Shown here: positions 2,477-49,600 of the stretch, piece by piece
Layout: each line of letters opens with the position of its first letter
Numbering within the stretch: the first letter of the stretch is position 1
DNA from: Bigelowiella natans CCMP2755
Taxonomy: Eukaryota; Protista; Cercozoa
Direction: 5' to 3'
DNA length: 64,000 nt
Assembly (NCBI GenBank): GCA_000320545.1
Contig: ADNK01002279.1
Span: forward strand, 1-64,000
Notes under the pieces: model-generated
The model's database searches: none
What the model was told of the DNA's origin: nothing
What the model saw: the letters and a program-made list of their open reading frames with translations, nothing else
Program-made: the position numbers and the translations under genes

Positions 2477-4199
2477 TCATCTTCCCCATACAATCATATC
2501 CGAACACCATCTCAACTTTGCTCTTCACGGTTTCTCATTGAGCATTAGTACCTCCGGTGGGGGGGCTCGATTTGCTCTCCGGAATAAATTGATTTTCCCG
2601 CGGAAATGACTTTGATATACCCGTGTCAATGGAGCTAAACGGGCGCGCCAGGTCCCCCCCAAGCTTGTTTGAACTGCCGACTTCCCTCCAGTCAGTCCTC
2701 TGGGAGGCAGACATGCTGGAGGAGGGGGAAGGGAGGGGGGGTTGTGCGTGTAGAAAGGATCCGCCGGCCGGGTTTGTAGTGCTGTGTGAAAGGCATCTTT
2801 AGTAAACATAAAATCTCGGTTGGGACAATTCGTAATTCTTATATAGAGTAAGAGAACGAAGTATATATACTTGATCATGTTCAAGCAGGCAAGAATGCGT
2901 AACACGCATTGATTGGAATGGGAGGAAAGGACGGCACGCAACTACACGCACACCCTCGGAGGAATAAGTAAACGGAGTACAAGTATCAATTTGCCTATCG
3001 CAAATGTTTTTGTATTATTTTATTTTTTTAATTCTTATTTGGAAGTCAGTGAGACGAGGAAAGACAAACAAGAAAATGAAGAGAATATCCGAAGTCACAC
3101 AGTATAGAGTGTTATGAAAACGTCTTGTGCACATCATTTGGTGTAATTGATTGTTTAGCACCAAAACGCATAACGCATACAACGCGTGGATTGTGAATTA
3201 CCCTTCCGTTAAGAGGAGATCCTGTCTTCAGTGTCAGAAAGTGCTATTAGCTACAGGCAAAGAGATTAGCCATTAACTACATTGATTTCGATAACAAAGA
3301 GGAATGAGAAATTTGTCTATAAATGATCGTGGTCCACAACTGATATGCAGTCATGTGTTATAAAGGGGGTGATTCTTTCCTAGCGCAAAATGAAGGCGGG
3401 ATGGGCACTTCCGCCTTGCAAAAACGTAGTAAAAATGTGGCGACACTAACAAAATTCTCTCTAGAATATCAATTCTACAGATTATCTGAAGAATTCGAAA
3501 TGCCTTTGGAGCAATGACGCTATCACACCAGCCGATGACCTCCTCTTTACACAGAAGGAAGTTGAGCGGTGAAAAAGTGTCTTTGTCCACACAGGTCCGG
3601 AGCGAAGATGGGCTTGGCCCGTAAAATTTGTGCATACATTTTATTTATTTGTAAATTAATTCATTTCTGTGATTGCATCCCCTGAGGCAGGCTGCAACCG
3701 CGTGTTTCATCTTTCAAGCTCACCGGTGCCAGGTCTGCCCCATTATGCCGGCATATTCAGCCCTAACACTTTAGTGTACGCTCGCGAAGATCAGAAGTTT
3801 GAGGTCTATTTTCTTGATACGACATGTGATATTTTCAGTCGAAAGAAAAATATCAGGGCTTGCAATCCAACAATGGAATGGAAGGTTACTTCCGGTTGTT
3901 TTGAAAAGAATCGAATTGGGATTGCCCTCCTTCGTTCCTCGTTTTTCTGCACAGGTTTAAATCTGCATGGCGTTGTCGCTTGTGATGAACGCCTGGTCAA
4001 TGTGCTTTCTTCTTGTGTCAAACTAAGCCGACACTAAGATCTTTTTTGCCGTTTGCTGTTCATTGAAGGAAGGCTAGAAGGGCCCTGTCACCGAACCGCG
4101 TGTTGTGTTTGTGCATTTGGTGCGGATTGATGCAGCTTCCTAGCAATCTTTAGTGCTTATGCTCTACCTGGACCAGCTTTGCTATGCTCTTCGTCTCTG

Positions 4200-5250
4200 C
4201 GTGCTGGTTGTGCCGGAGGCACGCACAGCGGCAAGCTTTGTCGTTCATGTGGTTCTTGCTCGTGTGGTTTTTGCATCAATGCTTCATTCATTTTTCATTG
4301 TTCATTGTTCGCATGAACTTGTTCTGTTGCAAAGGCATTCAGAGTTTCACTTACATCTTTGGTGTTCGCCACATGTGGATGATGTGTTTTCTGGTTTTGT
4401 CCGTTTCTAGGTTTGACGTTGTCACGTTGCGCGTTGGCACTCCAGCACTGAACACCCAGCATTGAACACTGCTAGACTGAACTGAGCACACACACTGTCC
4501 GGCTGAACTACAAAATAGCGTGCGCAACAACCAAACGAGATGCGTGCATTTGGCACTAGTTGTGGAACAATGCCAGAATGGTCGTTCGATCTTCCTTGCA
4601 AGAATGACTCCAAGCTGGCAATCCAGCAGTGCGGCTGGAGTGCTGGAGTGCAAGTAGGTCGCATCACAGCTAGACAGCTAGACGCAACAGCGCTAGCAGC
4701 GCACTGGCGTGCAACGCACCAGCTAGCCAGGTAGCCACAGCTAGACAGAGCGTTCAACATCATCACCACACAGCTAGCTAGCTAGACAGCGCACTGCAGA
4801 CACACCTAGACATGCCAGCATGCAAGCATGGCTAGGTGGTCCCACAAGGGCACAACGTGACCACTGCATGGCTCTCTCTAGCTCTAGATGTCTTGCTGAA
4901 AACTGCTCATTGGCATTGCTAGATTGCTAGATTGTGGATTCGCGCGTGGACAATGCATTTCATTGTCAAACTAGCGCATGCTAGCATCTAGCTAGCTAGG
5001 CATGGCTGCCATGCTGCTACCAAACTCTAGAACTAGCAAATGCCATGTAGTAATGCGCTACTAGATTGCTTAGGGTTCCATTCTCACTGCGCATGCGCGA
5101 TTGCATTTCGTCTGTATCAATTGAAACAGCCAAAAACGGTCGCAGCACATCTAGATGTGCACACGCAACTAGGCAATATAGTTGCCAACAACGACGCTTT
5201 GAATTGTATGGCAGCTCAGAACTCCAATGTCATGTAAATCCTGTAAGAAT
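4200..5250. repeat. TpA-depleted, CTAG-rich degenerate repeat tract A
   Basis: In 4201-5040 nearly all TA steps are in CTAG (about 21 CTAG in 4670-5036). Shares a 39-bp motif with tracts at about 16970 and 49000. Confidence 0.8.
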
Positions 5251-5330: not shown

Positions 5331-6844
5331 TTATTCACCACCATCTTCATTTATTGAAGTGCCCCACGAACTAGCTGGTAAGACAAATGCTCGACCCAAT
5401 CGTCTATCAAGAGCTAAACTTGCGTTTATTCTTAATTCGCACTTTTCATCCCAGTTGATATCAAGAGTTGCTTCTTTAGCCTCACTAACTCTTGGTTTAA
5501 GACTACTGTATGGATTTGCGATCTTGTAAGAACTCCGTTTCAGCTCAAATGCACCGAAATGAATCCCCTCTTTTTTATCAATTGTGTATGTTTTGGAGTT
5601 TAAATCTCGAATAGAAAGATGAAATCTGGGGCCCAGCGTAATATTTTCTACCCCCTTTTTTACACTTTTACATTTTCTGACGATCACCTGACGCAATATT
5701 AAAACTTGATTACTATCAAACTCTTGTTGGAAACCCATTATCTGAGTTTGTTGTCCCTCGTAATATCCGACGACTTGAAATACTTGCCATGTATTCTTTG
5801 GATTTATTCGTAGGTATATTTTTAATGGATTTTGCTCCTTGGATTCATATTTCTTTGTTGCTTTAAAAAAATCTATAACTGCTGTTTTAGGGTCCCAGTT
5901 TCTTACCAAACCACCATAACACCATGCCTGAGTAGATGAGTAACATATGTCGCATTAATCGGAAATCCTTGCGGCTAATGAACTTACTTCGTCTCCAACA
6001 GCATGAAGTATTTCGTCGTACAGCATATGAATCATCGAAATGTCTCTACAAAGCTTCCTTTTCAATACCTATTTTGCGTTTCTTGTTAGGTTTAGCATGT
6101 TACTATTGTCAGCGAAGAGAGTTTAATATTGCCTTCCAATGTCATTCTCTATGACAACTACCTTTTGGTGTTCGCCAAGTAAAACTTGAATTGAATTTAT
6201 TGCAAGTGTCGGATCCTTTTCCCATGAGCTGCTGACTTCAGATGGAAAATGAAGCTTAGCAGCTTGGAGAGCGTTTGTACCTGCCTCAGTCGAGTTGCAT
6301 ATTCTGCGAGATTTCACAGCTACGGAACCGTCAACTCCATAGCAACCATAATCATATCTCAAAACGCTTTCTCCAATAATCTTCCGAGCAGGGGAAGTAT
6401 GCATGATATCAGCACCACTTTCGATCAAGGAGAGAATGGCTTTGGAATTCCCACCTCGTGCTGCCAACCAAAGGGCCTATCAACAAATAAAGAAAGCATT
6501 TAAATTTTTAACGAGAAATGCTTCAACACATAACACATACCGAATTCCCAAAAGCATCCTTTGCATTTGGATCGGCTTTAGCTCGTAATAGAGCATTCAC
6601 AAACTCAGGATGAGCTAAAAACGCAGTTAAAATATGGTTTCCATTTTTGCATGTGGAATTGACGTCCACGTTGTAAGAAATAAACAATTTTAGTATTTGA
6701 AGTCCTTTCTTTGTGCTTCGGCAAGAGAACATTGGTGGGTCATGCCGTCCATCAAATGACATTCCATTTAAATTGAGATTGGGATTTTCTACCAAAAGAG
6801 TTTTTACACCTCGAAAACAATCATTTGAGGCGAGATATTGCAAC
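5331..6844 (-). CDS. Ankyrin-repeat protein with uncharacterised C-terminal domain (spliced; N-terminus unresolved)
   Basis: Exon 6844-6541 joins exon starting 6476 across a gtatgt...gatag intron to give KADPNAKDAFGNS|ALWLAARGGNSKAILSLIESGADIMH, a canonical ankyrin repeat. A later junction reads HAVGDE|AWCYGGLVRNWDP into the 5909-5331 ORF. Confidence 0.75.
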
Positions 6845-7244
6845 CTGCAAAAGGCTAATTTAGGGATGTTGGAATGAAAGAAGTGTCGTCATCGATGTGC
6901 TGTAACAACGTGTAAAAGGCAAGCAAGCAACCCTCCGCAGGTTTGACATCATCTGCGCACATTTGATCGACAAAATATAGTGTCACACATCCCAATCGGT
7001 CACCTTCGAATCAAAATATATTCCTCCGTTTTTTCTTCGTTGCAATTTCTCCAACCGGAAATGAACTGCATGGACGCAGACCGACAGTCATTCGCCACCG
7101 CACTTCGTTTCCCAGAGCATTTTCTGTCATTGAGGCTATGCGCAGACCGCAGTGTTGACCTGTTTCCATGAAACCTCCCGTTAGTTGCTCCCATGCGAGG
7201 CAGTTTTTTCCTCCCTCACTTTTTCTCATTCGGTGAACTAATTG

Positions 7245-7860
7245 CATGCACTTGCTTTGCTCGGAACAAAGGCTTCATGCGGCTTGGATGCACCACAGTT
7301 GTCGCAGCGGAAAAACGCCCTTGATCCAATGGAGACACTGAAGCAATGGATGCGCCTGCGCCGAGTGCTTGCCGCAACGGATGTTCATTGTCGCATCACC
7401 AAAACTGGAGATGGAGCAATGCTAGCCAGTTTCCACTGAATTGGGACACGCACGGTGTTCATGACGTCGTCCAAACATTTGTGGAGTGAGTGTGTGGGCT
7501 AGCGGGATGCATGTGCTCATTTGCTTTCGCCAGCTAGCTGGTCATCGACACGAGCACACCAATGCATTCTGCACCCAGATGACCAATTCGCTAGTTCGGG
7601 TGCGATGGAGAACAAACGAAAGGCGCAAGGCCAGGGAGTGCACGTTGGTGCGCGGAAGTGGAGTCTCAGGCTTGATTCCTCTGCTCAGCTAGTTGCGTTC
7701 GTAATGCATTGTTTTGTCGCGTGCGTGGTGCGTCTCCGCTTTCGCATCATGCACGCAAACAGAGGTGACGATCGGGGTGTTTGTTTTTTTGCGGTTGCGT
7801 GTGACTCCATTGCAACGCACGCACGCATGCCAGCATGGCTCCACTTTGACAGGTCACATC
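7245..7860. repeat. TpA-depleted tract B
   Basis: Hand count in about 615 bp: 5 CTAG and only 1 other TA (GTAA near 7700). TA reappears abruptly at 7862. Confidence 0.8.
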
Positions 7861-7934
7861 TTAAACATCTCAAAAATAGGTTTTGTTCGGTGTACATCTT
7901 GCTAAAATTGTGTGCATTTGATGCAACATGAGAA

Positions 7935-14960: not shown

Positions 14961-16029
14961 CGAGTGTTATCCGAATGACTATTTGCCTTTCATTATCTCG
15001 ATGTCTTCGGCGTCGAGGGTTTTCTTCACTTTACTGTCCGCACTGCTGTGATCTGGAGCATCCTTGTTTCTCTTCTCTCCGCCTCCCCCCACTGCAAATA
15101 ACTCGGTCGATGGCCGCTTCTTTGCCCCACCTCGGAGTACCCCTCTAAAAATGTCTAAGTAGCTCTGGAGAGCTACACGTTCTATTCTAGGTTTACCATG
15201 CGAAACACTATTGAATAGTAAACCCGTCAGCCTGTGCCCGGAGGGTACGATAACAGATGCTGGCCTTGAGGCACTCAAGCGGCGCTGTGAGCACGGGGAG
15301 AGATTCACGCTCCCCGTCCTTTCCGCGGTCTTCGAAGAGGGCTGGTGCAAACACATGATGAAGGCAAAGAGGAGGAGCCACCAGAGCCTACACGATGTTG
15401 CGTGAAGCTACGTCAGCAAGGCAAGCATGCAGCGCTCACAACATACTCTACAAAATCTACCCCAGCCGGAGGGACCCTGCGCCCACCATCATCGTCGTTA
15501 GCAGAATCTTCAAAAACGGACTGTATTTCAGAAAAAATATTGGCAAAAATTGAATTTTCCAAAAAAAATCGCCTCTTCCGCGACCCACATCCGAAGACCA
15601 AACGGTCCTCCTCCTTCCCCCCCGCTGGCTCTTCGGAGCAATCTAGATGGCCAGCTCCTCGTCCAGCCCGGCCGATTACTAAGAAAAATTGGACGAATGC
15701 AAGAAGAGGCAGGCTGCAACTTTGGATGATCTGCGTGCTCAGGAGGGGAGGAGAGCGACTGCAGCGAAGAAGTGCAAAACCCTCAAGATGGGCGGGTTTG
15801 GTGCCATCGAGGATGAAGTTGAAGGAAAGCTGAAACAGTTTCGCTCCTTCATTTCAACGCAGATCGAACAAAACATCTTCCGGGTGTGATTGACAAAGTC
15901 AGAACGTCCCAAAACTGCGCCCATTTTCTCTTTTTTTCCTTCTGAGCGCAAAAGGTGGAGGGGCGTTGTGTCAGCGTCCTTGAGGAGCACACCGAAGAAA
16001 TTGTGTCCTGCAATGCGAAGCCTGCTGAG

Positions 16030-17400
16030 TCACCACACTGAAGTTGTCAAGTAGCAGTTGATCATCAACGTGTGTGACACACTACCACACACAGCAAAAA
16101 AAAGAGAGAAAGACACTGCAACACGGTGATGTGGTGCACGACAGGCGCAGGCAAAGAAACATCGTTCACTGTCACTCCTTGTGTGTGATTGTGGTTTGCC
16201 AGAGCATTGGCACACCCGGATGCGGGGAGCACATGGGAACAGTGTGTGAGCATTGCATTGGAGCTTCTAGTTTTTGGTGAGACACCAATGAAGGTGTCTT
16301 TGTTGCGTCGCTTTCACGATCATTTTCGCTAGTTTGGGGTGTTTGCTCGAACACTTCTACAAAATTGCCACTTCTGGCTAGCTGGCGCGCTTCATTGTCG
16401 GTGAATTGGGCACTTTGTGAGTGTGCTAGTGTGAGAGCGAGGCGTGGACTGCCGCACCACCTTTGGATCACACATGACCTGCCAGAATTGGAGAGCCCCT
16501 GGAGCGCCGGCAAATGACAAATCTAGAAATACGACCGTCTTTTTGACCTGTCACTGAGCAACTCCACGATCCATCGAGTCGCTTCGAGACTTCGAGACTT
16601 CAGACCAGCTGGTGGGCGAGCTGCGCTGCGCGGCCACCTGTTTCACCTGTGGAACAGGTCGACTTGCTAGCTTGGGGTTGGAGAAAACTTGGTGGAGCCG
16701 CTAGGCCGCCCTGTTTGACAAGGAGGGCTCGCAGGGCTAGCTAGCTAGAGGGATTGCTAGTGACCCCTAGACCCAGCCGGTGGTCATTCGCGCTAGCTCG
16801 CCTACGCTCTCGAAACGGTGAAGCACCGAACACGTTGAATTGAACGTTGAATTGAAGATCAATGCATGCAAAAATGACATGCAGCGTCGTGAACATGTTT
16901 GACATTGAACATTGAAAGAACATGGAACATTGAACATTGAACACAATGATGAACATTGGACAAATCATCAATGCAAAAACTACATGAGCATGAACCACAT
17001 GGGAGACAAGCGCCAACACAAGTGCACAACGTGCGCGTGAACCGCACTTCAGCATTGAACTCTGAACACTGAAAGTTGAACTGAGCATTCCAGCATTGCC
17101 TAGATTGCTGGATGGGTGCAACACAAAATGTGCGAAAGAACCACATGGGAGACACACATTTGCACGCAGCAGAACCTGCAAACAAAAATCATTGCGAGGA
17201 CTTGTCAGCACCCTCTAGTCCTCTAGCCCTGTCCAGCTGTTGGTGGTGATTGTTGTCAAGGCTGGCTAGCTGGTCACCACGCGATGCGAAGTCTGCTTCC
17301 TCTTTTTTCACCACCACCCAAATCTTAGCAAGTTTGAAGAACAGAAGAATCTCATCAAAACTAAAGTGCGCCCGCGGTGTGTCTAGGTGCCGCATCTAGC
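16030..17400. repeat. TpA-depleted degenerate repeat tract C with TGAACAT heptamer array
   Basis: TA is almost confined to CTAG (e.g. gggctagctagctagag at about 16735-16750). Imperfect (TGAACAT)n at about 16835-16960. Homologous motif to tracts A and H. Confidence 0.8.
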
Positions 17401-33802: not shown

Positions 33803-35400
33803 TCACTTCGCATCTACTTCAGCCGCAGCTTCCTCTGCGGTGACGGGCTTGCGGTGGTTCTCATTGCTCATGTCGGAGCGACCTCGATTCGGAAACTTCT
33901 CTAATATACCTGGCGAATTCATGTGATGTTGGGTGGTTAGAACCGACGTGTCAGGATCGTAAAAACTTCATCTAAAATGACTCTCTCTACCAAGTCGGGG
34001 GAGAGTAAAAAAAAAACCGGGGGGGAAACTAAAACCAATGAAGACTTACGCAGTGCGCGATCGTAGATGAGATGGTTCTGGTGCGACTGCAGCCTTTCGA
34101 TTACTTGCAAGACGCCGGAATTTGTGACTGGCTTCATATACCTGGGAGCACGGTGGAGACCGATGGAAAAAAACAAGGAAACAACAGAAAGATAAGGAAA
34201 ACTAAACAAATCCAAAAGAAAACAGTAAATAAATACACCGCGACGGATGAAAACAGCACGGCCAAAGCGGCGGAGCTCTGATCGAAACTTGCAGCGGTAA
34301 AGCGCGTAGGTGCACCGCTCATCGGCACGAGAAACCATTCACGTGGATCCAAGGGCGTTAAGAGAATCAATAAAAATACAGCACTAACGAATCACACCAC
34401 CAAACCCCAAAAACAGGAAGGCTGGAAGCGGCCAGGACAAGGGATTTGGCAACACCGCGGCGCATCGTACCTGTTAGGCGTCTCGTCACTTCCGTCCTGC
34501 AGCACGTTGTATATCGTCCGCAGCGAGTTCATGAGGATGTCCAGTCTGGGGTCTGTGATGTGTGGGTTTAGCAGCTGCGCGACCTTCGATATCAACCCTG
34601 ATAGTAGTGGTATTAGCAGTAGTAGTAGTAGAAAAACAGCGCACACAGAAACGACAACAGGCGTCAGCAGATCTCCCATTACCAATGATAAAATGGCGCA
34701 GAGAGAGAGGGAGAGAGAGAGAGAGAGAGGGGGGGGGAGGAGGGGATCGTAGTATGCATAGTTTCGAGGAAGTGCTTCTTGGTGCGAGTGGGCTTGCCCC
34801 TCACCTCTTTTGACGAGATTTCTCATAGCTTCCTTTTGACTCACAGCGGCAATGGCCTTCACGGTCTTGGCTTTGACCTCAATATCGTCTGAGCGAAGGC
34901 CTTCTATCATGCCCTTAACATCCACCTCTTCAGTGTCATCGTCATCTTGATCGCCCTGCGGTGATGATGGCGATTAGTTGCGATAGTAATAAGACAAAGG
35001 AGGTTTCTCAAAAAGAATAAAACTGCGTTTGGTTCTCATAACCATTAGCAATATTATCATTATCATGGTAATCGGCATTGTTTTAGGCAAAAGTACCTCG
35101 ATCGAGCGGGTCGGAGAATCTATCGTTTTGGGCGTTTGGTCGGTATCTGTGTCGCCCGGTTCTTTTTTGCCATCCTCGCCTTCTTGCGCCTCCCCACCTC
35201 CGTCCTCGTCCACCACGTACACTGCATCTTCTAGGTTTACGAGGCCTGGATTTCAAACGCGACAGCAGCATTGGATTTTAAAAAAACTTGAATGAGAAAG
35301 CTAAACAAGCGACGCAATAGCAACCACCCTCGATCACCCCCACTTAAAATTGCGCGAAGGGAGGAAAATGAGGATGGGGAAGAGGGAGTCATCATCATCG

Positions 35401-35433
<33 letters not shown>

Positions 35434-36999
35434 CGCACCTGAGTCTGGATTGATCATTCCTTTGTTCGACCCGAATTCCGAAATGCCCAAGTCGTCCACT
35501 ATACAACCCGATTTGACCTCTTGCGCGTCCGCTATCTTCGGAGTGCTGTAGTAGTAGGAGTTGGTGACTTTGGGGGCCTCTGGCCTCGGGGTCCTGAGGT
35601 AGTACGGCGTCTGGAAGGGGAGCCGCTGATCGGGGGGGGGGCGTCTGTTTTGAGGCGTCGTCGTCCTGATGCTGCTGCTCGACTCGCTGTGGTCAGGAAT
35701 CATCGGAGGGGGAGGCATCAATGACCCTCCTTGGTATCGATCATACAAAACATCGACGATCTTCCCCGCCGCGCGCCACACTCGCCCCACGGTCTTCCCG
35801 ATGACTACCTCAATCAACGGCACCTTCTGGTCGTAGTGGCTCACGAAGTTCTTCACCTTGAGGGAGGCGTCCGACTCCTTGCGGATGCCCTCGATCGTCC
35901 TCCCCTGGGGCCCGATCACCGCTCCTTTGATGTGCTTTTCCACCAGGATTATAGCAGAAGCTGCGAGCTGGTCAGAGTCAGCCTCGGACGACTCTCCTCC
36001 TCCTCCTCCTCCTCCTCCTCCGGTTTTGATATCACTACTTCTCTCACCGTCATTTCCATCGTTCATACCACCTTCGAATATCTCCCCTGCCTCTCGGGGG
36101 TCGTCTGCGCCCCCCCCCGCCCCTGGACTGGGGATTGGACTGGGTATAGGGCTGGGTATAGGGCTAGGAATGGGGCTAACGCTGCTGCTGCTGGGTACAG
36201 TAGATGGGCGAGAAGAGGAGAAGTCTAATGCGACAGCAGGATTGTTGCTAGGCTCCGTGCTGCTGCTGCTTTGCACGTGCGCAAGACTACCTTCTTCTCC
36301 ATTCTCGACTTTCAGGTCGTCGATTTGCTGGCCGATGTTGGTGACGAGGAGTCGGATCGCCTCGTTTATCTGCTTGGTCTCGCCGTAGATCCGAAGAATG
36401 CGCGGTCGGCCCATCTTCCCGCCCTCATCTGTAAAAGTCAATCTACATCCTGTCCTCTGAGCGTAGTCGGCAATGGTGGCCCCCTTTCTACCTACTATAC
36501 CAGCTCTATACTGTGCAAGGACGAGCAGCCTCACAAAGAACTCTCCGTCTTCTTGCCTAGGCCGCTGTCTCTGAGGCGTGGGTCGTCTTCTTGGCCTGGG
36601 ACCTCTCGCCTGGGGTGTTGATGGCCCCCCCCTCCGCCGCATATCCTGCGACATCGGTGGAACAAACTGCGTGTGCATAGAAAAATTGTTAGGGCCAAAG
36701 TTTGGCGAATGAGGATGGTTATTCTGAGAAGGGGAGTAGTTGCGCCGTCGGATCTTCCGTCCTCCTCTAGCAGAATAAGAGTGTGGGTCATCCCTGATAT
36801 GATGTTCGTCTCTTGAGTTTGACCGTTGTCTTCGGTTAAGATCTCTAGGGTTTGACCTTTCCCTCCTCTCCCGTTTGCGGCGTATGGAGGGACTATCCAT
36901 ACTTGGAGACAGGCCAGGGGTATACCACCGGTTGCTGTAATTCTTCTTCGGGCCATTTCTCCCATTATGATTCGGGAGCTTTGACGGCCTTTTGCTCAT
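33803..36999 (-). CDS. RNA-binding protein with two KH domains fused to an importin-alpha-like C-terminal ARM module (6 exons)
   Basis: Exons 36999-35439, 35245-35097, 34955-34805, 34597-34471, 34141-34050 and 33909-33803 all join in phase at GT-AG sites. KH motifs: AGIVGRKGATI and GAVIGPQGRTI. The C-terminus SGVLQVIERLQSHQNHLIYDRALRILEKF matches importin-alpha 'IE.LQ.H.N..IY..A..I.E.YF'. Confidence 0.85.
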
Positions 37000-37299
37000 T
37001 TCCACGAACGTCGACGGCGAAAGCACCCGCTAAACCTCCTCGCTCCTTCCTCGGCCACGCTCTTTCTCCGGAACTGATGGCGCCCCTTGAGAACTATGAC
37101 AAAAAAAAAACCTTTGCAAGTGTATCGAAACCTTTGCAAGTGTATTGGAACCTCGGGGCGCGGATCAGGATAGCTTTGGGGCCAAAAGTAACAGGGTTCG
37201 GGTGATGGGTGCCCGGTCTCTCAAGTGGCGGTGGGGGAAGGGCAGGTCTTAAATATGTTAGTGATAACTATTTAATCCATAGGAGAATTCAGAAGAAAA

Positions 37300-38441: not shown

Positions 38442-38677
38442 ATGACCGAGCGATTCAATATCCATAGCCAGCTTGAGCATCTTCAAATGAAGTATGTAGG
38501 TAAGATCCAGCTCTCTTTGTACGCTTGATATCGTCAAAAAAATGCGAGGAAGAAATAGTATCTCATAGCATGCGCATGTTCTTTCTTTCAGGGACAGGGC
38601 ATCCGGATATCACACGTTACGAATGGTACACATATAGAGCAACCTCCATCTATACCACTGCTGCTATCACACACACA

Positions 38678-38719
<42 letters not shown>

Positions 38720-39306
38720 CACACATACATACATAGACACATACCATCACACACATCACACACACACACACACACACATACAAACGTACCGGAAATCGCA
38801 CCTTACAAAACATTACAATACTTCAGGGTTGTCAACCATCATCGTGACTCTGCTGCCTCGTACATCGGCCACCACCATATGCTGCTAATGTTCGGTACGC
38901 AAAGTAGGGATTAGATAAGATGAATCAGTAGTTTCATGAATTTGGTGAAAATGGATAGTATCATATATCGGCATTGCATGTATAATGAATCAACTATATA
39001 TTGAACAATTTGCACTATATGCACGGCGAATCGAAGTTGATAATCAATCATCCCAATATTCTTTACAATGCTACAGGTACGGCTGAAAACGAATCCATGG
39101 GACGCGTGAAACACCGCTTATTAGCTCAGATGGTAGTTAAGCAACACTGTGGTGAAATAAACAAAGCTATACATATATCTGGAGCAATGACAATAGAAGA
39201 ATCTGGTCGTTATTTGTTTACAAGCTCTTTTTGGTCTCAGGTTGCTCCTTGCGGAAAAGAACCGAAGGGAGCTGAGGAGGAAGATGATGAAGACGAATTA
39301 GAATGA
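38442..39306 (+). CDS. SF3B5: Splicing factor 3B subunit 5 (SF3b10), 5 exons
   Basis: Spliced product MTERFNIHSQLEHLQMKYVGTGHPDITRYEWVVNHHRDSAASYIGHHHMLLMFGTAENESMGRVKHRLLAQMVAPCGKEPKGAEEEDDEDELE*, which follows the SF3B5 consensus (SQLEHLQ.KY.GTGH.D...EW..N.HRDS..SY.GH; AENES..RV). Confidence 0.97.
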
Positions 39307-40709
39307 GAAAGACAAACGGACGAAGTTCGGAGCCTTGACCGTTATCGACAAAGGTGCAATATGTTCTACTTGCCAAAAAGAATTGTTACCTAAGATAAAA
39401 TGGTGTAATAGTAACCTCTTCTTTTGAACCGATGTGCAATCTCATTACATTTCGAGTTGTTAAAGTGTCAATGAGCGAGGCGCATAGCATAGCACGCCAT
39501 GTCCAGCATCTGATAGCCTGTAACTAAATGGTCCATGTTGCAGCAATGCAGCCAGACATTTTGTGAAAATGCGTCAGATTTTTAATCAGAGCAACTTGTT
39601 CACACCAACAACTCCCTCAAATTCTGCTAACGAACTAGCTACAAGCCCGTCGCCTAAATTACATGCGTCATGTCCATCATCATTGGACTGCACCAGCACG
39701 TGCATGCGCACAGCGCGCAATGCACATGCTAGCATGTTCATGATGGACGACGCTCATTGTTTGCATGCGCATGCGTGCGATGCGGCAATTCTGTGCACTT
39801 TCATGATGAATGACTGACGTGACAGTCTAGCAGGCCATGAGAATGATGGACATGTGACAGCAGTCTGTGCATTCTAGCATTGCACGACAGTGTGCCATTG
39901 CTGTGTCTGTGATCAGTGCACAGCAAAAAAAAAATTGAATTCAGGCGACACTGATGTGATGGACATGTGATGTCACATGCACATTGCACACATCCAGACA
40001 TGCCATTGCTGTGTCCACAATGAGAGGCATGATGCGGATGCACTCAGCAGAACAAGCATGTTGTCCAAAGACAAAGACGCCATGATTGAAAAAATGATGC
40101 CAATTTGGACAATGCTGATGTGCTCAGCAGGACAAGTCTAGAAGTGCATCATCTGAAGACAAGGGCCCGTTTGCGCCTTCATCAGGCTTCGCTGGTGCAG
40201 CGCCAAATGGATTTGCCGAATGTGAATCGAGGTTGCACCCTCCACTACCCCCCACTTTCATTGCATCCACATCCATCCTGCTGATTTTTGCAAATTCAGA
40301 GCCAGCCTCTAACTGTTGCATCCGAAGGTGTCACTTCAACAGAAAATGGGGGAGGTGGTGTTGGATGCTGTGATTGAAAATGCAAATGACACTGATGGAT
40401 TGAAACATTGCACAAAAGCACAAAGTGCATCCATTTCCATGCATTTTTTCCCAAAATCAAGGCAACGGCTAGAACGGGTGCAAGTGTGGCAGTCGTCATC
40501 ATCTTGATTCCATTGCACTTTGAACATGAATCGAGAACTCTGTTCCCAACTTGAAAAAATCATGTCAACTCTGGAACAACTTCAAAAAAGTGTTCAATTG
40601 TTCCACGCCCAAGCCTTTTCAACATTGGCCGGACCACCATGAGGATTGGACAATTTGGGTGCTCCATCACACTGACAGACTTTGCCATGAAATGACAATG
40701 AGAGGCGCA

Positions 40710-42159
40710 TCAAGATCTGGGCGGGCGAACAACTCCAGCTCTTTTCACTTCTTCCACCAAATGCGAACGGAGGTCCACCGCATGAGCCACCCTTTGAAGG
40801 TTCAGCTCAACGTGTTCATCGTTTAGCAATTCAATCGGTGTCAAGCCCAATTTGCAACACTTCGGTGGCTTCACAGCCTCTGCCCTGCTGTCTTTCACTT
40901 CGGTGTGCCCGGCCTTGCATTCTTCAATGAGCTCTGACACCTGAGCGACCCCTTCCTTTGCATCGATTCTCTTTCTCCTCAGTTCTGCAATTGTTTCATC
41001 CTTGATCCTCATCATCCCTCCCTCATCGTCACGTGCTGTGTCGCTTCTGTCTCGTTCAACGGCCTTCGCAATGTCATGGGAATTTGTGAGGTTGTGCAGC
41101 TTCGTGCATGCGAACACGATCTTGCCTGCCTTCCTGTGATGAAACCTCATTGGAGACCACAAAATGCCGAATCTTCCAACCAGACGACCGAAGGCGCATT
41201 CTGTGGTGATTCTCAATTGACTCACTGCAAAGTTGCAATTCGATTTCTCATCACCCAGGTCTGACCCGGTGAAAGGCGACGTCAAAAGTTCATGGACCCC
41301 GCAAGCCGCGTCCCCGATCAGGAAATGACCAACCTCGAGAGCTCCATTCAGCAACTCTGAAGCTGCTTGTGTGACTTCATCATCTTCCATGCGACAGAGT
41401 TGGAGCCGGAGCCTCCTGTTGCTGTGCTGGCAGCGATGAAACGACAGTCAGAGTCGCAGACGGCCTGCAGGTTCAACGCATGATGGTGCTGCCTGCAGTG
41501 GAATCTTTTGACATGCTGTGTTTCTTTGTCGCTGGGTCTCCGCATCTTCACTGACAATCCGTCCATGGCTCCTGTGCAACCTTTGATTGCTTGGTTCATG
41601 CTGAGGCCTCCAAACCCAGCTTCAACTTCTTGTCGACCTGTGTTTCATTCGAAGGATCAAACCCAATTTTGCAGCACTCGTTTGTTGCATCCAATGTCCT
41701 CCAGAAATTGTGGTGGACGGAACGTTCCGCCACACCATGCAGGTCAGCTGTCCAGCTGTGTCTGGGCACGATCCTCCTGCTGGTAACCTGAGCGTCATTG
41801 ACAATGAAAGTTTGTGGGGATGCAATCTTCGCTGCTTGAATGCCGTTCATGCTTCTCTGACCGGGGTCCAATGCCAGAGTGTCGTCACAAGTTTTGTGGA
41901 ACAACTCCAAGGGCATCCTGTGTCTGCGTCTGAAAGCCATTGGAGACAGCCTGTCGATTCTCTTGATCCAATCCAGCCTGTTCGCATGTGATCTGGGCTT
42001 CGGCTTCCTTCTCTTCTTGTTCTTCAGGTGATCCACATGCTCGAGCACTTCCAATGCGTCAATGGCACGTTCAGCATCAAACCCCACCAAGTCCCATGGT
42101 GCAATGGAAGACGGGTCAAACGTGGGTGTCAACAAACCAGCGAGCATCATGGGCATCAA
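40710..42159 (-). pseudogene. PIF/Harbinger (DDE_Tnp_4 / HARBI1-like) transposase, frameshifted and missense-riddled
   Basis: Frameshift-linked frames retain RLDW..., FRRRHRM, LRLPAGGSCPDTA, GCTGAMDG, ALNLQAVCDSDCRF, FLIGDAACG, NCNF...RITTECAFGRLVGRFGILW and KLHN. An apparent 8-nt duplication (ggacagct) lies near 41750. Confidence 0.92.
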
Positions 42160-43119
42160 AACGTGAGGTGTGGGTGGTGAGAGTCATTGTTGCCCGACGC
42201 AGCGGAGGATGACCTGTGATCTGCCCAGTTGAATGCCGCCCTGCGTGATTCCGGGTGGACCAACATGACTTGCTTCACGTGCCACACCTTGTCGAAGTGC
42301 AAGCCGATGAACTGCCTCGGGATTCGGGATCAGATTTGGATGCATGAACAATGAACAATGATGATGAACCACACTTCCAAAACGTGACAAGACACTTGCA
42401 GTGTGCGAAGTGCAGTGCCTCGAACCAACTTCAGTGAGGTCCAACACAACCAGTGAAACCATGAGGAATCAAGAATGGCATTCTGGCCACTCCTCCGTTC
42501 CTAGTTTCATTGTCTTCAGTGCCTGACATTTGCCAACTTCAGGACCACGCATCCCCAAATCATGCCGCGATGGTTTGCTCATGCTTGGAGATCACCAAGC
42601 AAGAACACCACACCTGCGAACCCCAAGCGAACAATCCCGTGGACCACACCTTCATGGTCTGCTTCACACCTGCCACAATTTCCCCGGCTTTTGCGGAGAC
42701 ATTGCCCTCACTGGAAGGCATGAAGATGGAGGAGGATGCATTCTTCGTTCCCAGTCCACTTGGACAACGAGCTTCGCAATGACCACAGTCGGGCACTTTG
42801 TCGGATGCATCCCCGGCTTTTGCGGATGCAAAGCCCCAATCATTGCAATTGGAAGCACTAGCTTCACGCCAACCACAACATCCCCGGTCCAATGGAGACA
42901 TTGCCTGGAGGGCATGAAGTTTGAGAAGGACACCTTCATCCTGACGGGATTCATCCGGGATGAATCTTGGATGCAGACCCGAAAATCCTTCACTTGGCAG
43001 CCAATTCGCCGGTGGCCTGCCCCATCGGTGAACAGGAAAGTGGCACAGGGATGAGGGGAAAAGCCACCCTCGCAACCGAAAAACCCCCCGCCCAGTGCCA
43101 CGTCGGCGAATGCAACTTC

Positions 43120-43445
43120 AAATCTTGAACACAGATCCATGCATCCTTCATCTGGCTACCGAGTCACCGGTGGCTGGGGCGACAAGTCTGTCTACCCCAC
43201 CAGTGACCAGGAATGTGGTTCAGGGGTGGGAGGTGACCAACCCCCCCTGCACATTGCCGCATCGCGCCAATTTTTTCCGAACGTGCATGACTCTGAATCT
43301 TGAATGCCGATCCACACATCCTTCATCTGGCTACCTAGTCACCGGTGGCTAGGGCGACATGTCTGTCCATCCCACCAGTGTCCAGAAATGTGGTTCAGGG
43401 GTAAGAGGTGATCAAACCCCCCGCCCATTGCCGCATCGCGCGCCG
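43120..43445 (+). repeat. Two imperfect direct repeats of about 150 bp (about 43120-43268 and 43296-43443) at the end of the Harbinger tract
   Basis: Shared text aatcttgaa...gatcca..catccttcatctggctacc.agtcaccggtggct.gggcgaca.gtctgtc...ccaccagtg.ccag.aatgtggttcaggggt..gaggtga.caa.ccccc...cattgccgcatcgcgc. Confidence 0.92.
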
Positions 43446-43768
43446 CATCGGCGGCAACTGCCAGACTGGACAATGCATGCACTTGCATTTTTTCGTTGTC
43501 GCAGCTCGTCATCCATTTTTCAACTGACGACAATACCACGGAGTTTGTCTCTATGATAAAACGCAAAACAAACACATCACTACATAAAATCCAGTCAACT
43601 TCTCATCTACGAGCACATACCACAGGATTACAGGTGGCTAGTGCAAGTGCGACAATGTGTCTGTTACTGCCGGGATTTAACAGAATATTGTTGGCCACCA
43701 GACCTTTTTTGTTATTATTTTCCCCAAATTTTGAATTTTTAAATCGAGACCCGTATTCAATTGGGCGA

Positions 43769-43956
43769 ATGCTGCGGCTGGTTCGCGGCCTGGCCCTCGC
43801 TTGGGTATTGGTGGTAACACGGCTGCTGCCCTCAGTTCTAGCGTTTAGAAGTCCCGGAGAACTGAAGATATTGCACGGAAATCGTTCTTTCGATATTGAC
43901 GATGTTGGGTAGGGATTACTTTCAATTGTTCGAACATGTTTTTCGGTTTGTATGTG

Positions 43957-44000
<44 letters not shown>

Positions 44001-45569
44001 ACATGTTGAGAAAAAACAAGTGCAGGCAACTGCAAGCTACTTGATTTTTTCTACAGTGAGATTGCTAACTATGATGTTGTTGATGTAATTCATCTAGACC
44101 TCTTCAAGATCCAGATATCGAATATAGACATAGGCTTGACAAGTGCATGGTGGACATTGACCTCGCCAATTACAAGCCACAAGAGGAAAGAATAGTTTAT
44201 TACATGCCGAAAATGAGTAATGGAATTCGCGATGGACTTCGAATGATGACTTACCTTCGCAAAATTGCTGTTCAAAACAATGCGACAGTATGCATTTCAG
44301 GCGGGAAGGAGGGGGCAACAAACTTCCTCACGTCTAAGCACTCAGCGGTGATCCATCCTAGTTGGGAACAATATTTCGATATAGACTTTGCGGTATGCAA
44401 TTCGGATATTACCCAAAAGCATTCTGATTGCAACACAGTCACAAAATCTAGCGAGAATGTGGACAATTTGAATATGTTCGAGAACGAGGTCAAGTGCGTA
44501 AACCTTGAGGTGGACTGGTACAGTTCCAAGATCAAGGAGGAAATTAACCCGATATCGCATCCGGAATGCTACACTAGGCTATCTGGTGTGATGTGTGGTG
44601 TGGTGTCTAGGACTTGTGGTGTGTGACAGCGATGCGTGATGCGTCTAATGTGTTATGTATGATGTAGGCATATGCTGTGTAATGTATTATGCATAACTCT
44701 GTTGTATGATGCATGATGTAAGAATATGTTATGCAAAGTGTGCTGCATAACATTGATGTATGTATTTTGTGTGAGAACATATTGTGTAACAATTTCTACA
44801 TCACACGTTTTGTGTGACGTATAATGCAAGGAAATGTTGTATCATATGTGATGCATAATCCATTATATGTAATGCATGATCTTAGGAAATGTAAAGGATC
44901 TATTCTCCAAACTTCTTGCTGCTAACAATCTAGTTAAGCACGAATATGGACACGTGCACATCCGAAGGAGGGACAAAATCCTGAACAATGCCAATTGCAC
45001 CAAGATTGAAGCGGTCATCAGTGACATTAGGCGATTCCCAGAAGTCAAGACGTGGGTTGTGGATTACTATGCTTCCGACAAGTTTAAGAATGAATTTAGG
45101 ACGGCATTGAAGCAGGATTTACCGGATCATAGGTTTGTGTTTGAAGAGGAAATCAACATTTTTGAGCAGGGTGACCAGTACACAAAGGTAATTCTACTTG
45201 ACATAAATCGATAAACAACGAATTCGCGGACGCCGTCCGAATTTTTGACTGATCTCCTTGCTTTTTTGATGTATCGGCTCGTGATAAAATACCTAATCTG
45301 GTAATATGAATGTGAGTAAGGTTTCATGAATTCTTATGGCCTCAATATTTGCTCGTGACATCTTGAACCCATCTGCCCCACAACAGGCCTTGGTGATGAT
45401 GATGCTCCAACAAAATGCAGCGATAGAACGCGAGACCCATAATTGTGTGCCAGATTCCGATAAAGCCCTGTTGTTTTGTCGTGGGCATTTATACGATCAA
45501 TGCCATCAAACAGAAGATGACGATGTCAGCAATACTCTTCCAAAGTCGACGTGCATACAGCTTGGTTGA
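43769..45569 (+). CDS. GDP-fucose-dependent fucosyltransferase-like protein (FUT8/NodZ/O-FucT-type GT-B fold), 4 exons
   Basis: Exons 43769-43908, 44098-44585, 44886-45187 and 45387-45569 join in phase. N-terminal hydrophobic signal/anchor; SNGIRDGLRMMTYLRKIAVQNNATV; motif I GHVHIRRRD; YYASD. Confidence 0.75.
44586..44885 (+). other. Intron made of formerly AT-rich low-complexity sequence, partly converted TA>TG
   Basis: gtgtgatgtgtggtgtggtgtctagg... grades into TA-containing atatgttatgc...; GT...AG ends are intact and in phase. Confidence 0.7.
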
Positions 45570-46159
45570 AAGAAAGGGAATTGTAAATTGAGAGTGTGGT
45601 ATAAAAGAGACAGGTTCATGTATCATGTATAGCACGCTCAGTGTGTGTGTTGTTTTTCATAGATGCTTAATTGGCAAATGTGGGTGCAGCCACAATCTCA
45701 TATTTGGGTAAATACGGCGTGTTTAGTTTAGTTTTTAGCCAGAAAGCGGGCCCTTGTTGAAGGCAAGCCAAAGCCTTCCTTCTTACCGTGAACTATCTCT
45801 CGAACCATCTCTCTAGCTTCTAAGGCATCACGTGATATCATATTTTAGAGGGAAGTGAATATTTAGGTCGCTAGAAATAGAAGACGACCACATGAATGCC
45901 CGTGACGTCCCTGAAGAAGAACGGGTGCTGCTAATTACACGACGCTATACTTTGATGAATCGGTATCGGATATCTCGCTGAATGCAAACGCATTTAACAG
46001 AAAATACGTCAAAATGTAGAGATGTTATAATGAATAAACGCTTGAAATAATAAAACGTTAAAAGTGAAGTGAAAATCATAGAGCACAATAGAGTTACGTG
46101 GACGTAAAATGTTTGGCAAAATTTTCTGGCTCTTGCCTGAAATTCTATACACGACTGGA

Positions 46160-47490
46160 TGCATTGATGGCATCATGCATCGATCTGGGCGCGCATGCAC
46201 ATGCGATGGCATGCAAGCAATGTTGTGTGCACATCTACGCAAGAAGCGAAGCATAGCTATCATTAGAGATTATAGCCTTCATTTGTGCATGCGTAAACCC
46301 ACACGTTTCATTGTTTCCATGTGTGTGATTACGTGCACACATGTTCTCTTCCACTAGCATGTAGCACACATGCACTGACGAACATGTGAAATGTCCGATG
46401 ATTTGCGTAGCTCAGACCATGGTGTACACGAATAGAGACATTAGCGTCTACATCTAGACATGCCGCCTCTGACTTGCATCGCCATCGCAGATGTTGCAAT
46501 GTGACATGACTAGCTAGATGTCCATGTGGTCGCGATTCACGGCGACAAATCAGCATGCACAACGAATCACAACGATCAAATCAAGCATCAAACGGCTCTA
46601 AAAGCTCAACTTGTGCGCACATGCTGGTGAACATTGTCGCGTGCCTTTGAAAATCATTGAACATTTGACAAACGATCATTGTGCTCATCTGTTTGTAACA
46701 ATTTACGCTCTTTCGTGACCATGATCTTTGTGTCAACGCACTACACAACATGAGTAAGTGATGATGAAATCATGACTACCACGACTTTTGTGTCTGGCAG
46801 TCCTGCTTTGCAGGACTAGCGGTTGGCGACCTGGAGGAGAGCGAGGAAGAATGTGTTGAGGATGCTTGGAAATCCGATTCATATTCTTTCAAATGAGGGA
46901 TGTCGATTGCAGAACTAGAGGACGATGAACACGACGAAAAAGTCATTGTTTCCAACAAGGGAGGTGTCGTCTCTGACAAGAAGCTGAGAGCTTCATCTAT
47001 GTGCGTACGTCTTACTCGTGGAATTTCTCAAAACCGCTTCGATTCCGCAGCTCGACGCCAGTGATGCATGTTCGGAAACTCGCAGCACTTTAGTCCGAAG
47101 CTTGTGGTGCACAACAGCGCACGTGCACAGAGGGACACACATGCATACATGCATGTACATGCATGTATGCATGCACATCCATTGCGTGCGTGTCATCATG
47201 TGTGCACGTCATGCCCGCGATGCGCACACGTACATGTGCCTGTCAAAGTAGCATTGTTGCTTGCATGCCCACGTAGTGCTAGCAGGCATGCATGCAAGGT
47301 CGAGCGTCTAGAACATGTATGTGTGCATGGTTTTCGCGTCTTCTTGTCGTCTGAATCAGACCATGCGCTGAGCTGCATCAAATGTCTGAGTGAAACCGAG
47401 CAAAGCGTGCAAGTCGCAATTTCCAGACGATTATTGGGCACGGCTGTGGGATGCATGCATCGTACGCACCGCCATGCTACGTGCGATCAA
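46160..47490. repeat. Partially TpA-depleted intergenic tract G, including a fossil (TA)n microsatellite at 47135-47178
   Basis: Strong CATG/TGCA excess. 47135-47178 is a strictly alternating purine/pyrimidine run built only from CA, TG and TA steps. Confidence 0.7.
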
Positions 47491-48060
47491 TGAGCAAGGT
47501 TTATTTCGGTCATATACCCTTCGCTTAAATGACGTAGGGAGATTTATCGCAATCACTTTGAGCAACATCAATGGACTTGCGCAGCAGGCAGGCAAAGAAA
47601 GGTCAAACTCATCATGTTTTTATTAAACAAATCGAGTGGGGCGGTGTTTCTTGCGCGTATCCTTTCGCATGACATGCGCCATGCGCGATCCACCGACTCG
47701 CACATGTCGCTGATCACATGTTTAATGATTTTCTGAGCACATTGAGGCGTGTTTGACAGGCAGACTATGATTCTACTTGGATGTAATTCAGAAAACACAA
47801 GCGAACTGGTCATTCATGTAAAAACTGGAGCTCAGACGTAGGATGTTTATTTGTAGACCGCGAGCAGTAAACGATCTCATGAAGCCCCAAAAAATCAAGT
47901 TAGATTTCGTAATCTACACTTTTCGTCCCCAAATATCCTCTTCGGTTATTTTCCCTTGATTCAAATTTGTTTGAATTCGTGCTCGCTACGAAGCCCCCCA
48001 ATAAGGTCAGTTCCGCCAAGATCATCTTTGAGCCTCGCAAAACAATCAACGATCCAACGA

Positions 48061-48660
48061 TCAAGGGAGCAAGTGATTTTCGAAATTTTTCAATATGGAT
48101 AGAATCAGCGTGAGATCGAACGTCTTCTCAGTCATCATTAGCTTCAAGAATTCCGGCATGGTTGAGAAGGACACCACATGCTGGTGGATGGTTTTCATGA
48201 CGAGTTTGAGCATTCCTAAACTAGGAACCGCGCGAGAATCTGGTTTGGCCTTCTTTTTGGCCTCCAAAAATTCACTGTGCAACGTTTCTGCCCAAGCCTC
48301 AGCTTTTACGGAATTGCCAGACACTCTCTGCCTGTTGCCTTTCACGATCATCTTGCAAATGGCATTGATTAAGTTGGGAGCATCCGAGTCCGTTTTGAAA
48401 TCTTCGTCAGTGAAGAGCTCTTCGTCTATCACCTTATCTCGCCATTTGGAAGGAAACCTCTGTGTATCTTCAAGGAATTCCAACAAAACTTCTCTTCCGT
48501 TTGGAAGTGTGTCAAAGTCCACACGGCGTCCCTCAGTAGAGTTGCTGTGCACGAGCGTCCTCTCATCATGTACAATAGCCGCATTGGATGCACCGATGTT
48601 GAGAAGAATCGGAAGCAGCCATAAGGCAGCGGTAGCAACATCACACATTCGTTTTGCCAT
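48061..48660 (-). pseudogene. Tyrosine-free 199-aa intronless ORF in a partly converted tract; probable degenerate mobile-element or captured gene
   Basis: No Tyr in 199 aa. A frameshifted continuation (LDRWIVDCFARLKDDLGG...) follows. No family recognised. Confidence 0.4.
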
Positions 48661-48859
48661 GGTTGGGGGGTCTGCTTTCCCTGATCCTCGGAGTTTGAAC
48701 GAGCCGAGTGTTTTGGAATTTTTGAATTTTTTGAATTCGAAACCGCGCCTTCGGTTGTCATTACATTTTGATCATAAAAGTGTTGTCGCACGTGTAGTTT
48801 CCCCTTGAAATGTGAAAACATGAACAATGCAATCAGGCGTTTTTTGCTTGAGTCCTTGC

Positions 48860-49600
48860 AACGACTGTTGTTGAGGCTCTGTTACGTGCACACGCCTGTC
48901 ATCATGCATTTCGGTTGCACGCTTGCAACGTTTTGGAAATGCAGTTCATCATCATTGCTCATTGCACACTTGTCTCCCAATTGTTGTCTCCCACGTGGTT
49001 CTTGTGAACGTGGATTTGCATCAATGCTTTGTTCTGCTGCGTTCTGCTCTGGTTGCAAAAATCGGAATCTGGCCATGAAATTGTTCGACCGAATTGGTGA
49101 CAACAATCAGAGCGCAGGTCTGCTGAGGAGTGAAGCGCTAGCCCCAATGCTGCGTGCCCACGCTTGTCTTCCATGTGGTTCTGTGGTTCTCGCAGCTAGC
49201 TAGCTAGACGAATTGCAGAATCTTGGAAAAAAAGTTGCACAAAAAATTCCATCTCGAATCGAACACACAAACTAGCAAACGCCATGTGTGTGGTTTGAGC
49301 TGGCTGTGGTGGTCCCTAGCAATTTGATCTGCACGCACGCACGTGTGCATTCTTTGGCGATCATGATCACAATCGCCAGCAATGGCGATGCGTTCTGGCG
49401 TTGCATCTAGAAATGCTCAATCAAAACGTCCAGATTTGCAATGGACATGTGCACCGCATCCACGGCATTTGCTGCGCGAGCTAGCGAGCAGCGTGACATT
49501 CCAGCATTGACAACCGAAGCTGCACACGACGACGACTGATGCTCATTCACACATGTGGTTTTGTGCTCTAGATGTCATGCAATGGCGCCGCAAACGCTAA
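48860..49600. repeat. TpA-depleted tract H
   Basis: In 48860-49590 every TA I found is in CTAG (about 9). Shares the repeat motif with tracts A and C at 48991-49029. Confidence 0.8.

Follow-up and report, generated by a model that had tools for sequence, protein, structure and literature searches.

Mettrop et al. (bioRxiv 10.64898/2026.01.13.699255) have described, in mutation-accumulation lines of the alga Bigelowiella natans, a TpA-specific hypermutation of integrated DNA of a nucleocytoplasmic large DNA virus (NCLDV) and of virophages. According to the main text of this preprint, 230 of the 231 mutations in two viral regions are A>G or T>C changes and all 230 lie at TpA, the rate is about 1000 times the background, and the NCLDV target is both single-copy and silent. 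The same text counts 124 TpA-poor clusters, reports that DDE endonuclease and reverse transcriptase domains are enriched in TpA-depleted coding sequences, and names a homologue of ADAT2, Bn78255, as the candidate enzyme. Here we analyze a locus of B. natans CCMP2755 in a 64,000-nucleotide stretch of DNA (contig ADNK01002279.1, positions 1 to 64,000 of the forward strand; the window in what follows), where a PIF/Harbinger-type DNA transposon and a high-copy repeat adjoining it have lost nearly all of their TA dinucleotides.

This block is very probably a product of the process described by Mettrop et al. As far as the text of the preprint goes, the two have in common the host, the change of TpA to TpG or CpA, and the clustered loss of TpA with a gain of CpA and TpG; DDE endonucleases, along with reverse transcriptases, are already listed in the preprint among the TpA-depleted coding sequences. 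They differ in degree, as the observed-to-expected ratio (O/E) of TA is 0.07 in the block and 0.45 in the NCLDV region of the preprint. They also differ in what could be compared: the block contains a named type of transposon, which we examined copy against copy, and it displays a context effect, the slow conversion of CTAG. Hence, TpA hypermutation in this alga is known already and, according to the preprint, goes on at present, and what is added here is the survival of CTAG, which recurs in five further segments, and the erasure of a DNA transposon on both strands.

Two other systems invite comparison. Fungal repeat-induced point mutation (RIP) is alike in that dinucleotide-specific transitions on both strands ruin chromosomal mobile DNA while neighbouring genes are spared. 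RIP, however, is a C>T change that creates TpA, whereas the block loses TA and gains CA, and RIP requires duplicated sequence. Here, the most completely erased part is a low-copy element, so that a high copy number is not required, and the NCLDV target of the preprint is single-copy as well. Hypermutation of retroelements by APOBEC3 or ADAR is comparable in that the host edits with a preference for certain neighbouring bases, the fingerprint of which remains in dead elements. Their target is RNA or a single strand of a replication intermediate, whereas the DNA transposon examined here was changed on both of its strands.

Loss of TA and the direction of change

Over the 3750 bp of positions 39781-43530 only 16 TA are present, whereas about 227 would be expected from the 60.6 TA per kb in the microsatellite-masked background of the window. 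CA (O/E 1.53) and TG (1.69) are in excess. With these values the block has the composition by which the preprint defines its TpA-poor clusters, although they were calculated over the entire 3750 bp and the preprint uses 1-kb windows. The initial annotation of this DNA, made from its letters alone, had arrived at the same 16 TA with the same contexts (8 CTAG, 4 CTAC, 1 CTAA, 1 TTAG and 2 GTAA), and our recount reproduces these figures exactly, together with its TA count for the exon at 44098-44585 and its two TA-free gaps, which lie between the TA at 40824 and 41784 and between those at 41784 and 42502. It had also judged the loss to be beyond ordinary TpA under-representation, and the computed O/E of 0.07 against 0.79 in the background bears this out. 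The span it proposed, 39781-43530, lies inside the block, but the true extent is slightly wider (Table 1), and the edges are sharp: just outside, TA returns to 4-7 per 100 bp. CpG, which it had called common, is indeed present (155 in the 3750 bp), but is mildly depleted: its O/E is 0.63, or 0.74 once the C and G that arose from TA are taken into account, and that of the background is 1.01. Mobile DNA in the block was targeted, and the flanking host genes keep an ordinary TA content.

One might ascribe such a block to an assembly artefact, to ordinary compositional bias or to selection against TA, and TA is in fact mildly under-represented throughout the genome, as the background O/E indicates. 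We consider this explanation extremely improbable. The contigs of two DNA runs (X1 and X2) show no difference from the window over 39001-39706, 39740-40193, 40181-40556, 41542-41952 and 43424-43945 in a comparison of 24 of the 2016 matching pieces, each of which spans only part of the block. As the two runs carry identical letters, the conversion is not an assembly error. Furthermore, additional copies of the elements are likewise devoid of tyrosine, the loss of conserved tyrosines and the frameshifts are not selectable, and a GC-rich host exon retains 58 TA in 1596 bp.

The left part of the block is a broken PIF/Harbinger-type DNA transposon. Two frames of the transposase region match the family PF13359 above the cut-off (E-values of 1e-10 and 6.7e-12), and three frames align to the B. 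natans gene model P0001, the best match with 86% identity. The DDE_Tnp_4 transposase has 4726 relatives, and P0001 was the only close match to it in the large protein database. None of the 388 residues in the three in-frame pieces of the transposase and none of the 489 residues of P0001 is a tyrosine, whereas homologues contain 3.1% of this residue. At six of seven tyrosine-rich columns P0001 carries His or Cys, which are found there at 3.5% in 146 homologues. A swap of TG and CA explains 13 of the 43 amino-acid differences between the window and P0001, as opposed to 4, 1 and 3 for control swaps. Such swaps imply that a TA present in the ancestor was converted separately in the two copies, on one strand in the one and on the other strand in the other. 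In addition, one open reading frame of the transposase reads both His and Cys at tyrosine positions, and Met/Thr swaps were observed besides those of His and Cys.

The direction of the change is evident from an unedited copy of the high-copy repeat. This copy, L001, is the single locus in the metagenome contig set that matches the repeat pattern. Ten TA are aligned within its 168 aligned bases; the window has TG or CA at nine of them and keeps TA at one, which is a CTAG (one further CTAG sits at a gap edge, outside the count of 10). There are no reverse changes, as no TA of the window is opposite TG or CA. The initial proposal that TA is converted on either strand is therefore upheld by the nine conversions among ten sites and by the excess of both TG and CA. 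As a separate observation, positions 1-1565 of L001 consist of AT-rich phage-like genes, one of them with what we take to be a lysozyme-like motif, joined to the 168 bases of algal repeat; the contig is probably a chimeric assembly.

DNA transposons have no RNA stage. Since both products occur on one strand of one copy of such an element, the editing was probably that of chromosomal DNA, on both strands. The obvious competitor, ADAR-like A-to-I editing of the element RNA that is subsequently copied back into DNA, would agree with the 5' U preference of ADAR, which is discussed in the main text of Mettrop et al. (10.64898/2026.01.13.699255), and with the retroposon-like appearance of one of the two elements. 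Nevertheless, erasure has gone further in the DNA transposon than in the retroposon-like element, and TG and CA lie together on one strand of one of its copies where A>G on a single strand would be expected. The published de novo changes, as presented in the same text, lie in a silent, single-copy integrated virus. At five of the seven comparable sites, moreover, the RNA reads retain the ancestral A or T more often than the DNA contigs do (88% versus 22% at position 42616), which suggests that editing is less advanced in active copies. We therefore regard an RNA route as very improbable and, for the transposase region, as contradicted. A class II transposon that is almost wholly erased, on both strands and right up to unedited host genes, favours chromosomal over RNA editing.

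CTAG and the flanking bases

CTAG accounts for 8 of the 16 TA that remain in the block, but for only 159 of 3118 background TA (5.1%; binomial p = 4e-7). Five more segments of the window are poor in TA and rich in TG and CA, and there the share of CTAG among the remaining TA is 2 of 4 (4176-4500), 5 of 10 (7026-7875), 7 of 14 (15526-16700), 5 of 7 (16776-17325) and 9 of 13 (48651-49575). Pooled, this is 28 of 48 against 136 of 3016 (4.5%) in the background; the pooled counts exclude 35626-35950, a GC-rich host exon with CTAG at 0 of 4 and no gain of TG or CA, the inclusion of which would give 28 of 52. When survival is pooled, CTAG stands at about 0.55, CTAC at 0.19, CTAA at 0.10 and both CTAT and TTAC at 0.08, while the other contexts range from 0 to 0.07.

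CTAG is consequently slow to convert, but not refractory: about half of the sites survive. The initial annotation had called it refractory, and while it was right that CTAG is the context that survives, 2 of 21 conversions in the window that could be polarised by other copies took place at CTAG. At two sites where this copy has lost its CTAG, the ancestral base is found in 58% and 67% of the DNA contig depth, whereas at two comparison sites, one CTAC and one ATAT, TA is found in about 19% and 23% of the depth. On the edited strand, the remaining 19 conversions comprise 6 at DTAG, 3 at CTAH and 10 at DTAH (D is any base but C and H any base but G; contexts are taken from the window's own flanks, and one CTAH site of L001 is outside this tally).

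The rule that had been drawn from the surviving contexts, that an A preceded by T is spared when followed by G, does not hold. Eight of the 21 polarised conversions (the 6 at DTAG and the 2 at CTAG) affected precisely an A followed by G, and DTGG products are in excess, with 247 observed and 180 expected. When survival is calculated for strand-paired contexts, ATAG/CTAT, which the rule would make half-protected, survives at 0.05, no better than TTAA at 0.07, whereas the supposedly unprotected GTAA/TTAC survives at 0.17. TTAA, which is a YTAR site, shows no clear sparing, with 1 observed where 15 were expected. A Poisson fit leads to the same conclusion, with an Akaike information criterion (AIC) of 196.1 for a 3' G model and 177.6 for a 5' C model. 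This fit is rough, as its baselines were borrowed from host DNA and the copies share ancestry. It yields a conversion rate of x0.20 for a 5' C in the 5' C model and rates of x0.26 for a 5' C and x0.77 for a 3' G when both flanks are included. What can safely be stated is that CTAG is several-fold slower to convert and that a 3' G alone does not explain this.

Two results tell against a clear assignment of the effect to one flanking base. The half-site counts of DTAG and CTAH, 6:3 or 6:4 with the L001 site, are compatible with 50:50. In addition, the AIC values do not single out one flank, being 178.1 for both flanks and 178.6 for both flanks plus a CTAG term, next to the 5' C value given above, with 188.3 for CTAG only and 258.1 for a uniform rate. 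An alternative is that CTAG is shielded as a whole palindrome, be it through modification of the DNA, through a protein that binds it or through repair that restores TA. Editing of half-sites on either strand (6:3) would be in line with this, as would the number of CTAG in the edited segments, which is at or above expectation (37 versus 21). However, the CTAG-only model fits worse than the 5' C model (AIC 188 versus 178), the CTAG term brings no gain to the two-flank model, and CTAC and CTAA also outlast most other contexts. We hold shielding to be possible, but the less likely of the two, and prefer a neighbour preference.

In the main text of Mettrop et al., the terms CTAG, trinucleotide, tetranucleotide, context and Harbinger do not occur; its mutation lists are in the supplements. 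As far as we could find in the literature, this preprint is the only description of the process, the enzyme being a candidate there, and no other account of the process or of the CTAG effect was found, although the supplements may contain one. The accessible text of the ChlorV preprint (10.1101/2025.11.19.688996) reports no CTAG methylation, and that of PMC13101598 contains nothing on sequence context.

Possible chemistry of the conversion

We think it likely that TA was converted to TG and CA on both strands in the chromosome by a host TpA hypermutation, most probably by way of deamination of A. Taken by itself, deamination of adenine in DNA is the chemistry that we favour with somewhat less assurance. 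A host process would act in place on silenced mobile DNA and would deaminate the A of TpA to inosine, which replication would then fix as G, giving TG or CA. The enzyme would read the flanking bases, such that a C before the TA, or the full CTAG, would slow the conversion about four- to five-fold, and both strands would be edited over repeated rounds.

Several points tell against this scheme. The enzyme is hypothetical. Deaminases of the ADAT2/TadA type are attractive in that A-to-I deamination of DNA would yield A>G, but for amphioxus BjADAT2, the model enzyme of the preprint, the account given in PMC10354150 names GAA as the preferred context of adenine deamination and TCG as a context in which C is deaminated too, whereas the process in the block is confined to TA. 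On our analysis, the GAA preference does not match TA, and the context lends no support to the ADAT2 candidate. Furthermore, 11 of the 20 mismatches between the window and L001 are not TA interchanges. Of the 13 tyrosines of P0003, an intact relative with 41% identity, only 5 have His or Cys opposite them, and different residues are found opposite the other 8. Finally, the RNA share of the ancestral base is lower than that of the DNA at two of the seven comparable sites, in a comparison of reads with contig depths, possibly from different strains.

The same targets and the same outcome would result if an error-prone polymerase, eta- or iota-like, inserted G opposite T in the course of patch repair on marked chromatin. 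Such polymerases have hot spots at TA, where they give A>G on either strand, and no new DNA adenine deaminase would be required, the ADAT2 model enzyme having the wrong context in any case. Polymerase eta, however, also targets AA and makes other changes, while AA is not depleted in the block (O/E 1.19). Since the de novo A>G and T>C changes in the main text of the preprint are all at TpA as well, we find a polymerase unlikely.

A lesion on T is another candidate, as the sequence cannot reveal which base of the pair is changed: an enzyme could oxidise the thymine of TpA, and pairing of the oxidised base with G would lead to T>C. A 5' C would then adjoin the modified T, and the 5' C model is the one that fits best. 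Enzymatic thymine oxidation occurs in other protists. On the other hand, we saw no sign here of modified thymine or of such an enzyme in this alga, and hydroxymethyluracil is only weakly miscoding. This makes thymine oxidation still less probable than a polymerase, and deamination of adenine remains our preferred chemistry.

A similar pattern is seen in a distant lineage. The Harbinger transposase P0026 has no tyrosine in 340 residues, and 8 of the 11 tyrosines of a 48%-identical relative are opposite His or Cys in it. Three other Harbinger transposases (P0009, P0135 and P0152) carry His or Cys at some conserved tyrosine columns. To judge from these protein sequences, the process may operate in further hosts as well. 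Tentatively, algae of unrelated lineages might share a defence that is the inverse of RIP, namely a natural DNA adenine deaminase that is directed to silenced mobile DNA irrespective of copy number and acts there at TA on both strands, with a species-specific neighbour fingerprint. If so, the fingerprint, here the slowness of CTAG, would single out the enzyme. The effect of CTAG or of a 5' C amounts to a fingerprint in the sequence by which candidate enzymes, Bn78255 among them, can be judged in assays. For the fields of genome defence and base editing, a DNA adenine editor of natural origin would be of interest. There is also a consequence for annotation. P0001, P0154 and P0155, which are B. 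natans gene models on edited repeats, are without tyrosine. As edited repeats lose their TAA and TAG stops, the process likely creates false, tyrosine-free gene models.

Elements, host genes and other segments of the window

The features of the locus are collected in Table 1.

Table 1. Coordinates of the features at the TA-erased locus, in window positions.
Feature	Position	Strand	Evidence
SF3b10 (SF3B5)-like host gene, ordinary TA content (unedited control)	38442..39306	+	PF07189
TpA-erased block (TA to TG/CA on both strands; CTAG mostly kept)	39662..43533	none	ordinary TA end at 39660 and resume at 43534
Low-copy repeat containing the transposase	39700..42340	none	summed contig depth; almost no RNA reads
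Frameshifted PIF/Harbinger-type DDE transposase (DDE_Tnp_4) without tyrosine codons	40710..42156	-	Pfam PF13359 and alignment to P0001
High-copy retroposon-like repeat, 3' end at 42344 with short tandem tail	42344..43470 (5' end approximate)	-	depth, contig junctions, RNA strand
Two 147-bp internal repeats of the high-copy element, 175-bp spacing	43121..43441	none	alignment to each other
Putative single-copy exon, ordinary TA content (unedited control)	44098..44585	+	28 TA in 488 bp

In the low-copy repeat, the summed contig depth of run X1 over 39721-42240 is 236-423, compared with 129-134 in the unique flanks; such a summed depth is not equal to copy number. The depth of the RNA run X21 over the same positions is only 0-0.28. 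A search for terminal inverted repeats returned inverted matches of just 11-17 bp, none of them at both block edges, and no target-site duplication. As editing erases TA, a TA-bearing target duplication of 3 bp (TAA or TTA), as PIF/Harbinger elements make, would be lost. None of 12 frames over 39600-40800 contains a Pfam family that would represent a Myb/SANT-like second open reading frame, which decay could mask, and the viral contig set contains no relative of P0003.

The high-copy repeat resembles the 3' part of a non-LTR (long terminal repeat) retroposon in its behaviour: besides the tandem tail, it has a shared 3' end, a depth that falls in the 5' direction and transcription directed towards the tail. 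The summed depth is in the thousands from 42344 rightwards and drops toward 43500, and 24 contigs depart from the window into unrelated DNA at position 42344. First mates of X21 map to the minus strand over the repeat, while the plus-strand SF3b10 gene gives plus first mates; the repeat family is thus transcribed on the minus strand. The retroposon may sit inside the Harbinger-type transposon or beside it. Of the mismatches between the two internal repeats, 7 of 17 are TA/TG/CA interchanges.

Frame searches of the high-copy repeat found no Pfam family, and there is no Rfam match over 39000-44500; neither a reverse transcriptase nor an RNA-derived SINE head was recognised in these searches. A Pfam scan of 66 short frames and models gave matches in 3 of the 66, all under the cut-off, and the idea that the frame at 42667-43155 is RNase H-like was dropped, there being no Pfam match. 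A search for a target duplication gave one low-complexity direct repeat of 7 bp, at 42340 and 43473. With the repeat as a query, the large protein database returned only two matches, P0154 and P0155. Together with P0001, these are the three named close relatives of the elements of the block, with identities of 80-86%, and all are B. natans models; by these matches alone, the window would come from this alga or a very close relative. The viral contig set contains 0 matches to the repeat pattern. A second, short copy of the 3' tail of the repeat is located at 48922-48981 and is 78% identical to 42334-42391.

As to the flanking host genes, PF07189 was found in two exon pieces of the SF3b10-like gene with E-values of 3e-4 and 0.02, both under the cut-off, and the gene is expressed in X21. 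The exon on the other side has no Pfam family, and the depth of 134 over 44041-44400 is that of a single-copy sequence.

Elsewhere, the segments 4238-4310 and 16932-17009 are mutually alike (74%) and differ at TA/TG/CA steps. Regions 46150-47550 and 48000-48650 are partly TA-poor and perhaps represent less completely edited elements. Runs of alternating TG and CA steps at 39690-39790 and 47130-47200 resemble edited TA-rich microsatellites, and (TA)n tracts are intact elsewhere in the window. Zinc fingers of the zf-C17orf113 type are found in hAT-type transposases, and one match to this family, under the cut-off (E-value of 0.002), lies on the minus strand at 15742-16029, within a TA-poor segment. 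A match to PF03496 at 15683-15886 on the plus strand (E-value of 0.019) is far under the cut-off and most likely due to chance. Other host genes of the window, all on the minus strand, encode a KH-domain protein (35434-37029), ankyrin repeats (6526-6888) and an Arm repeat (33940-34338).

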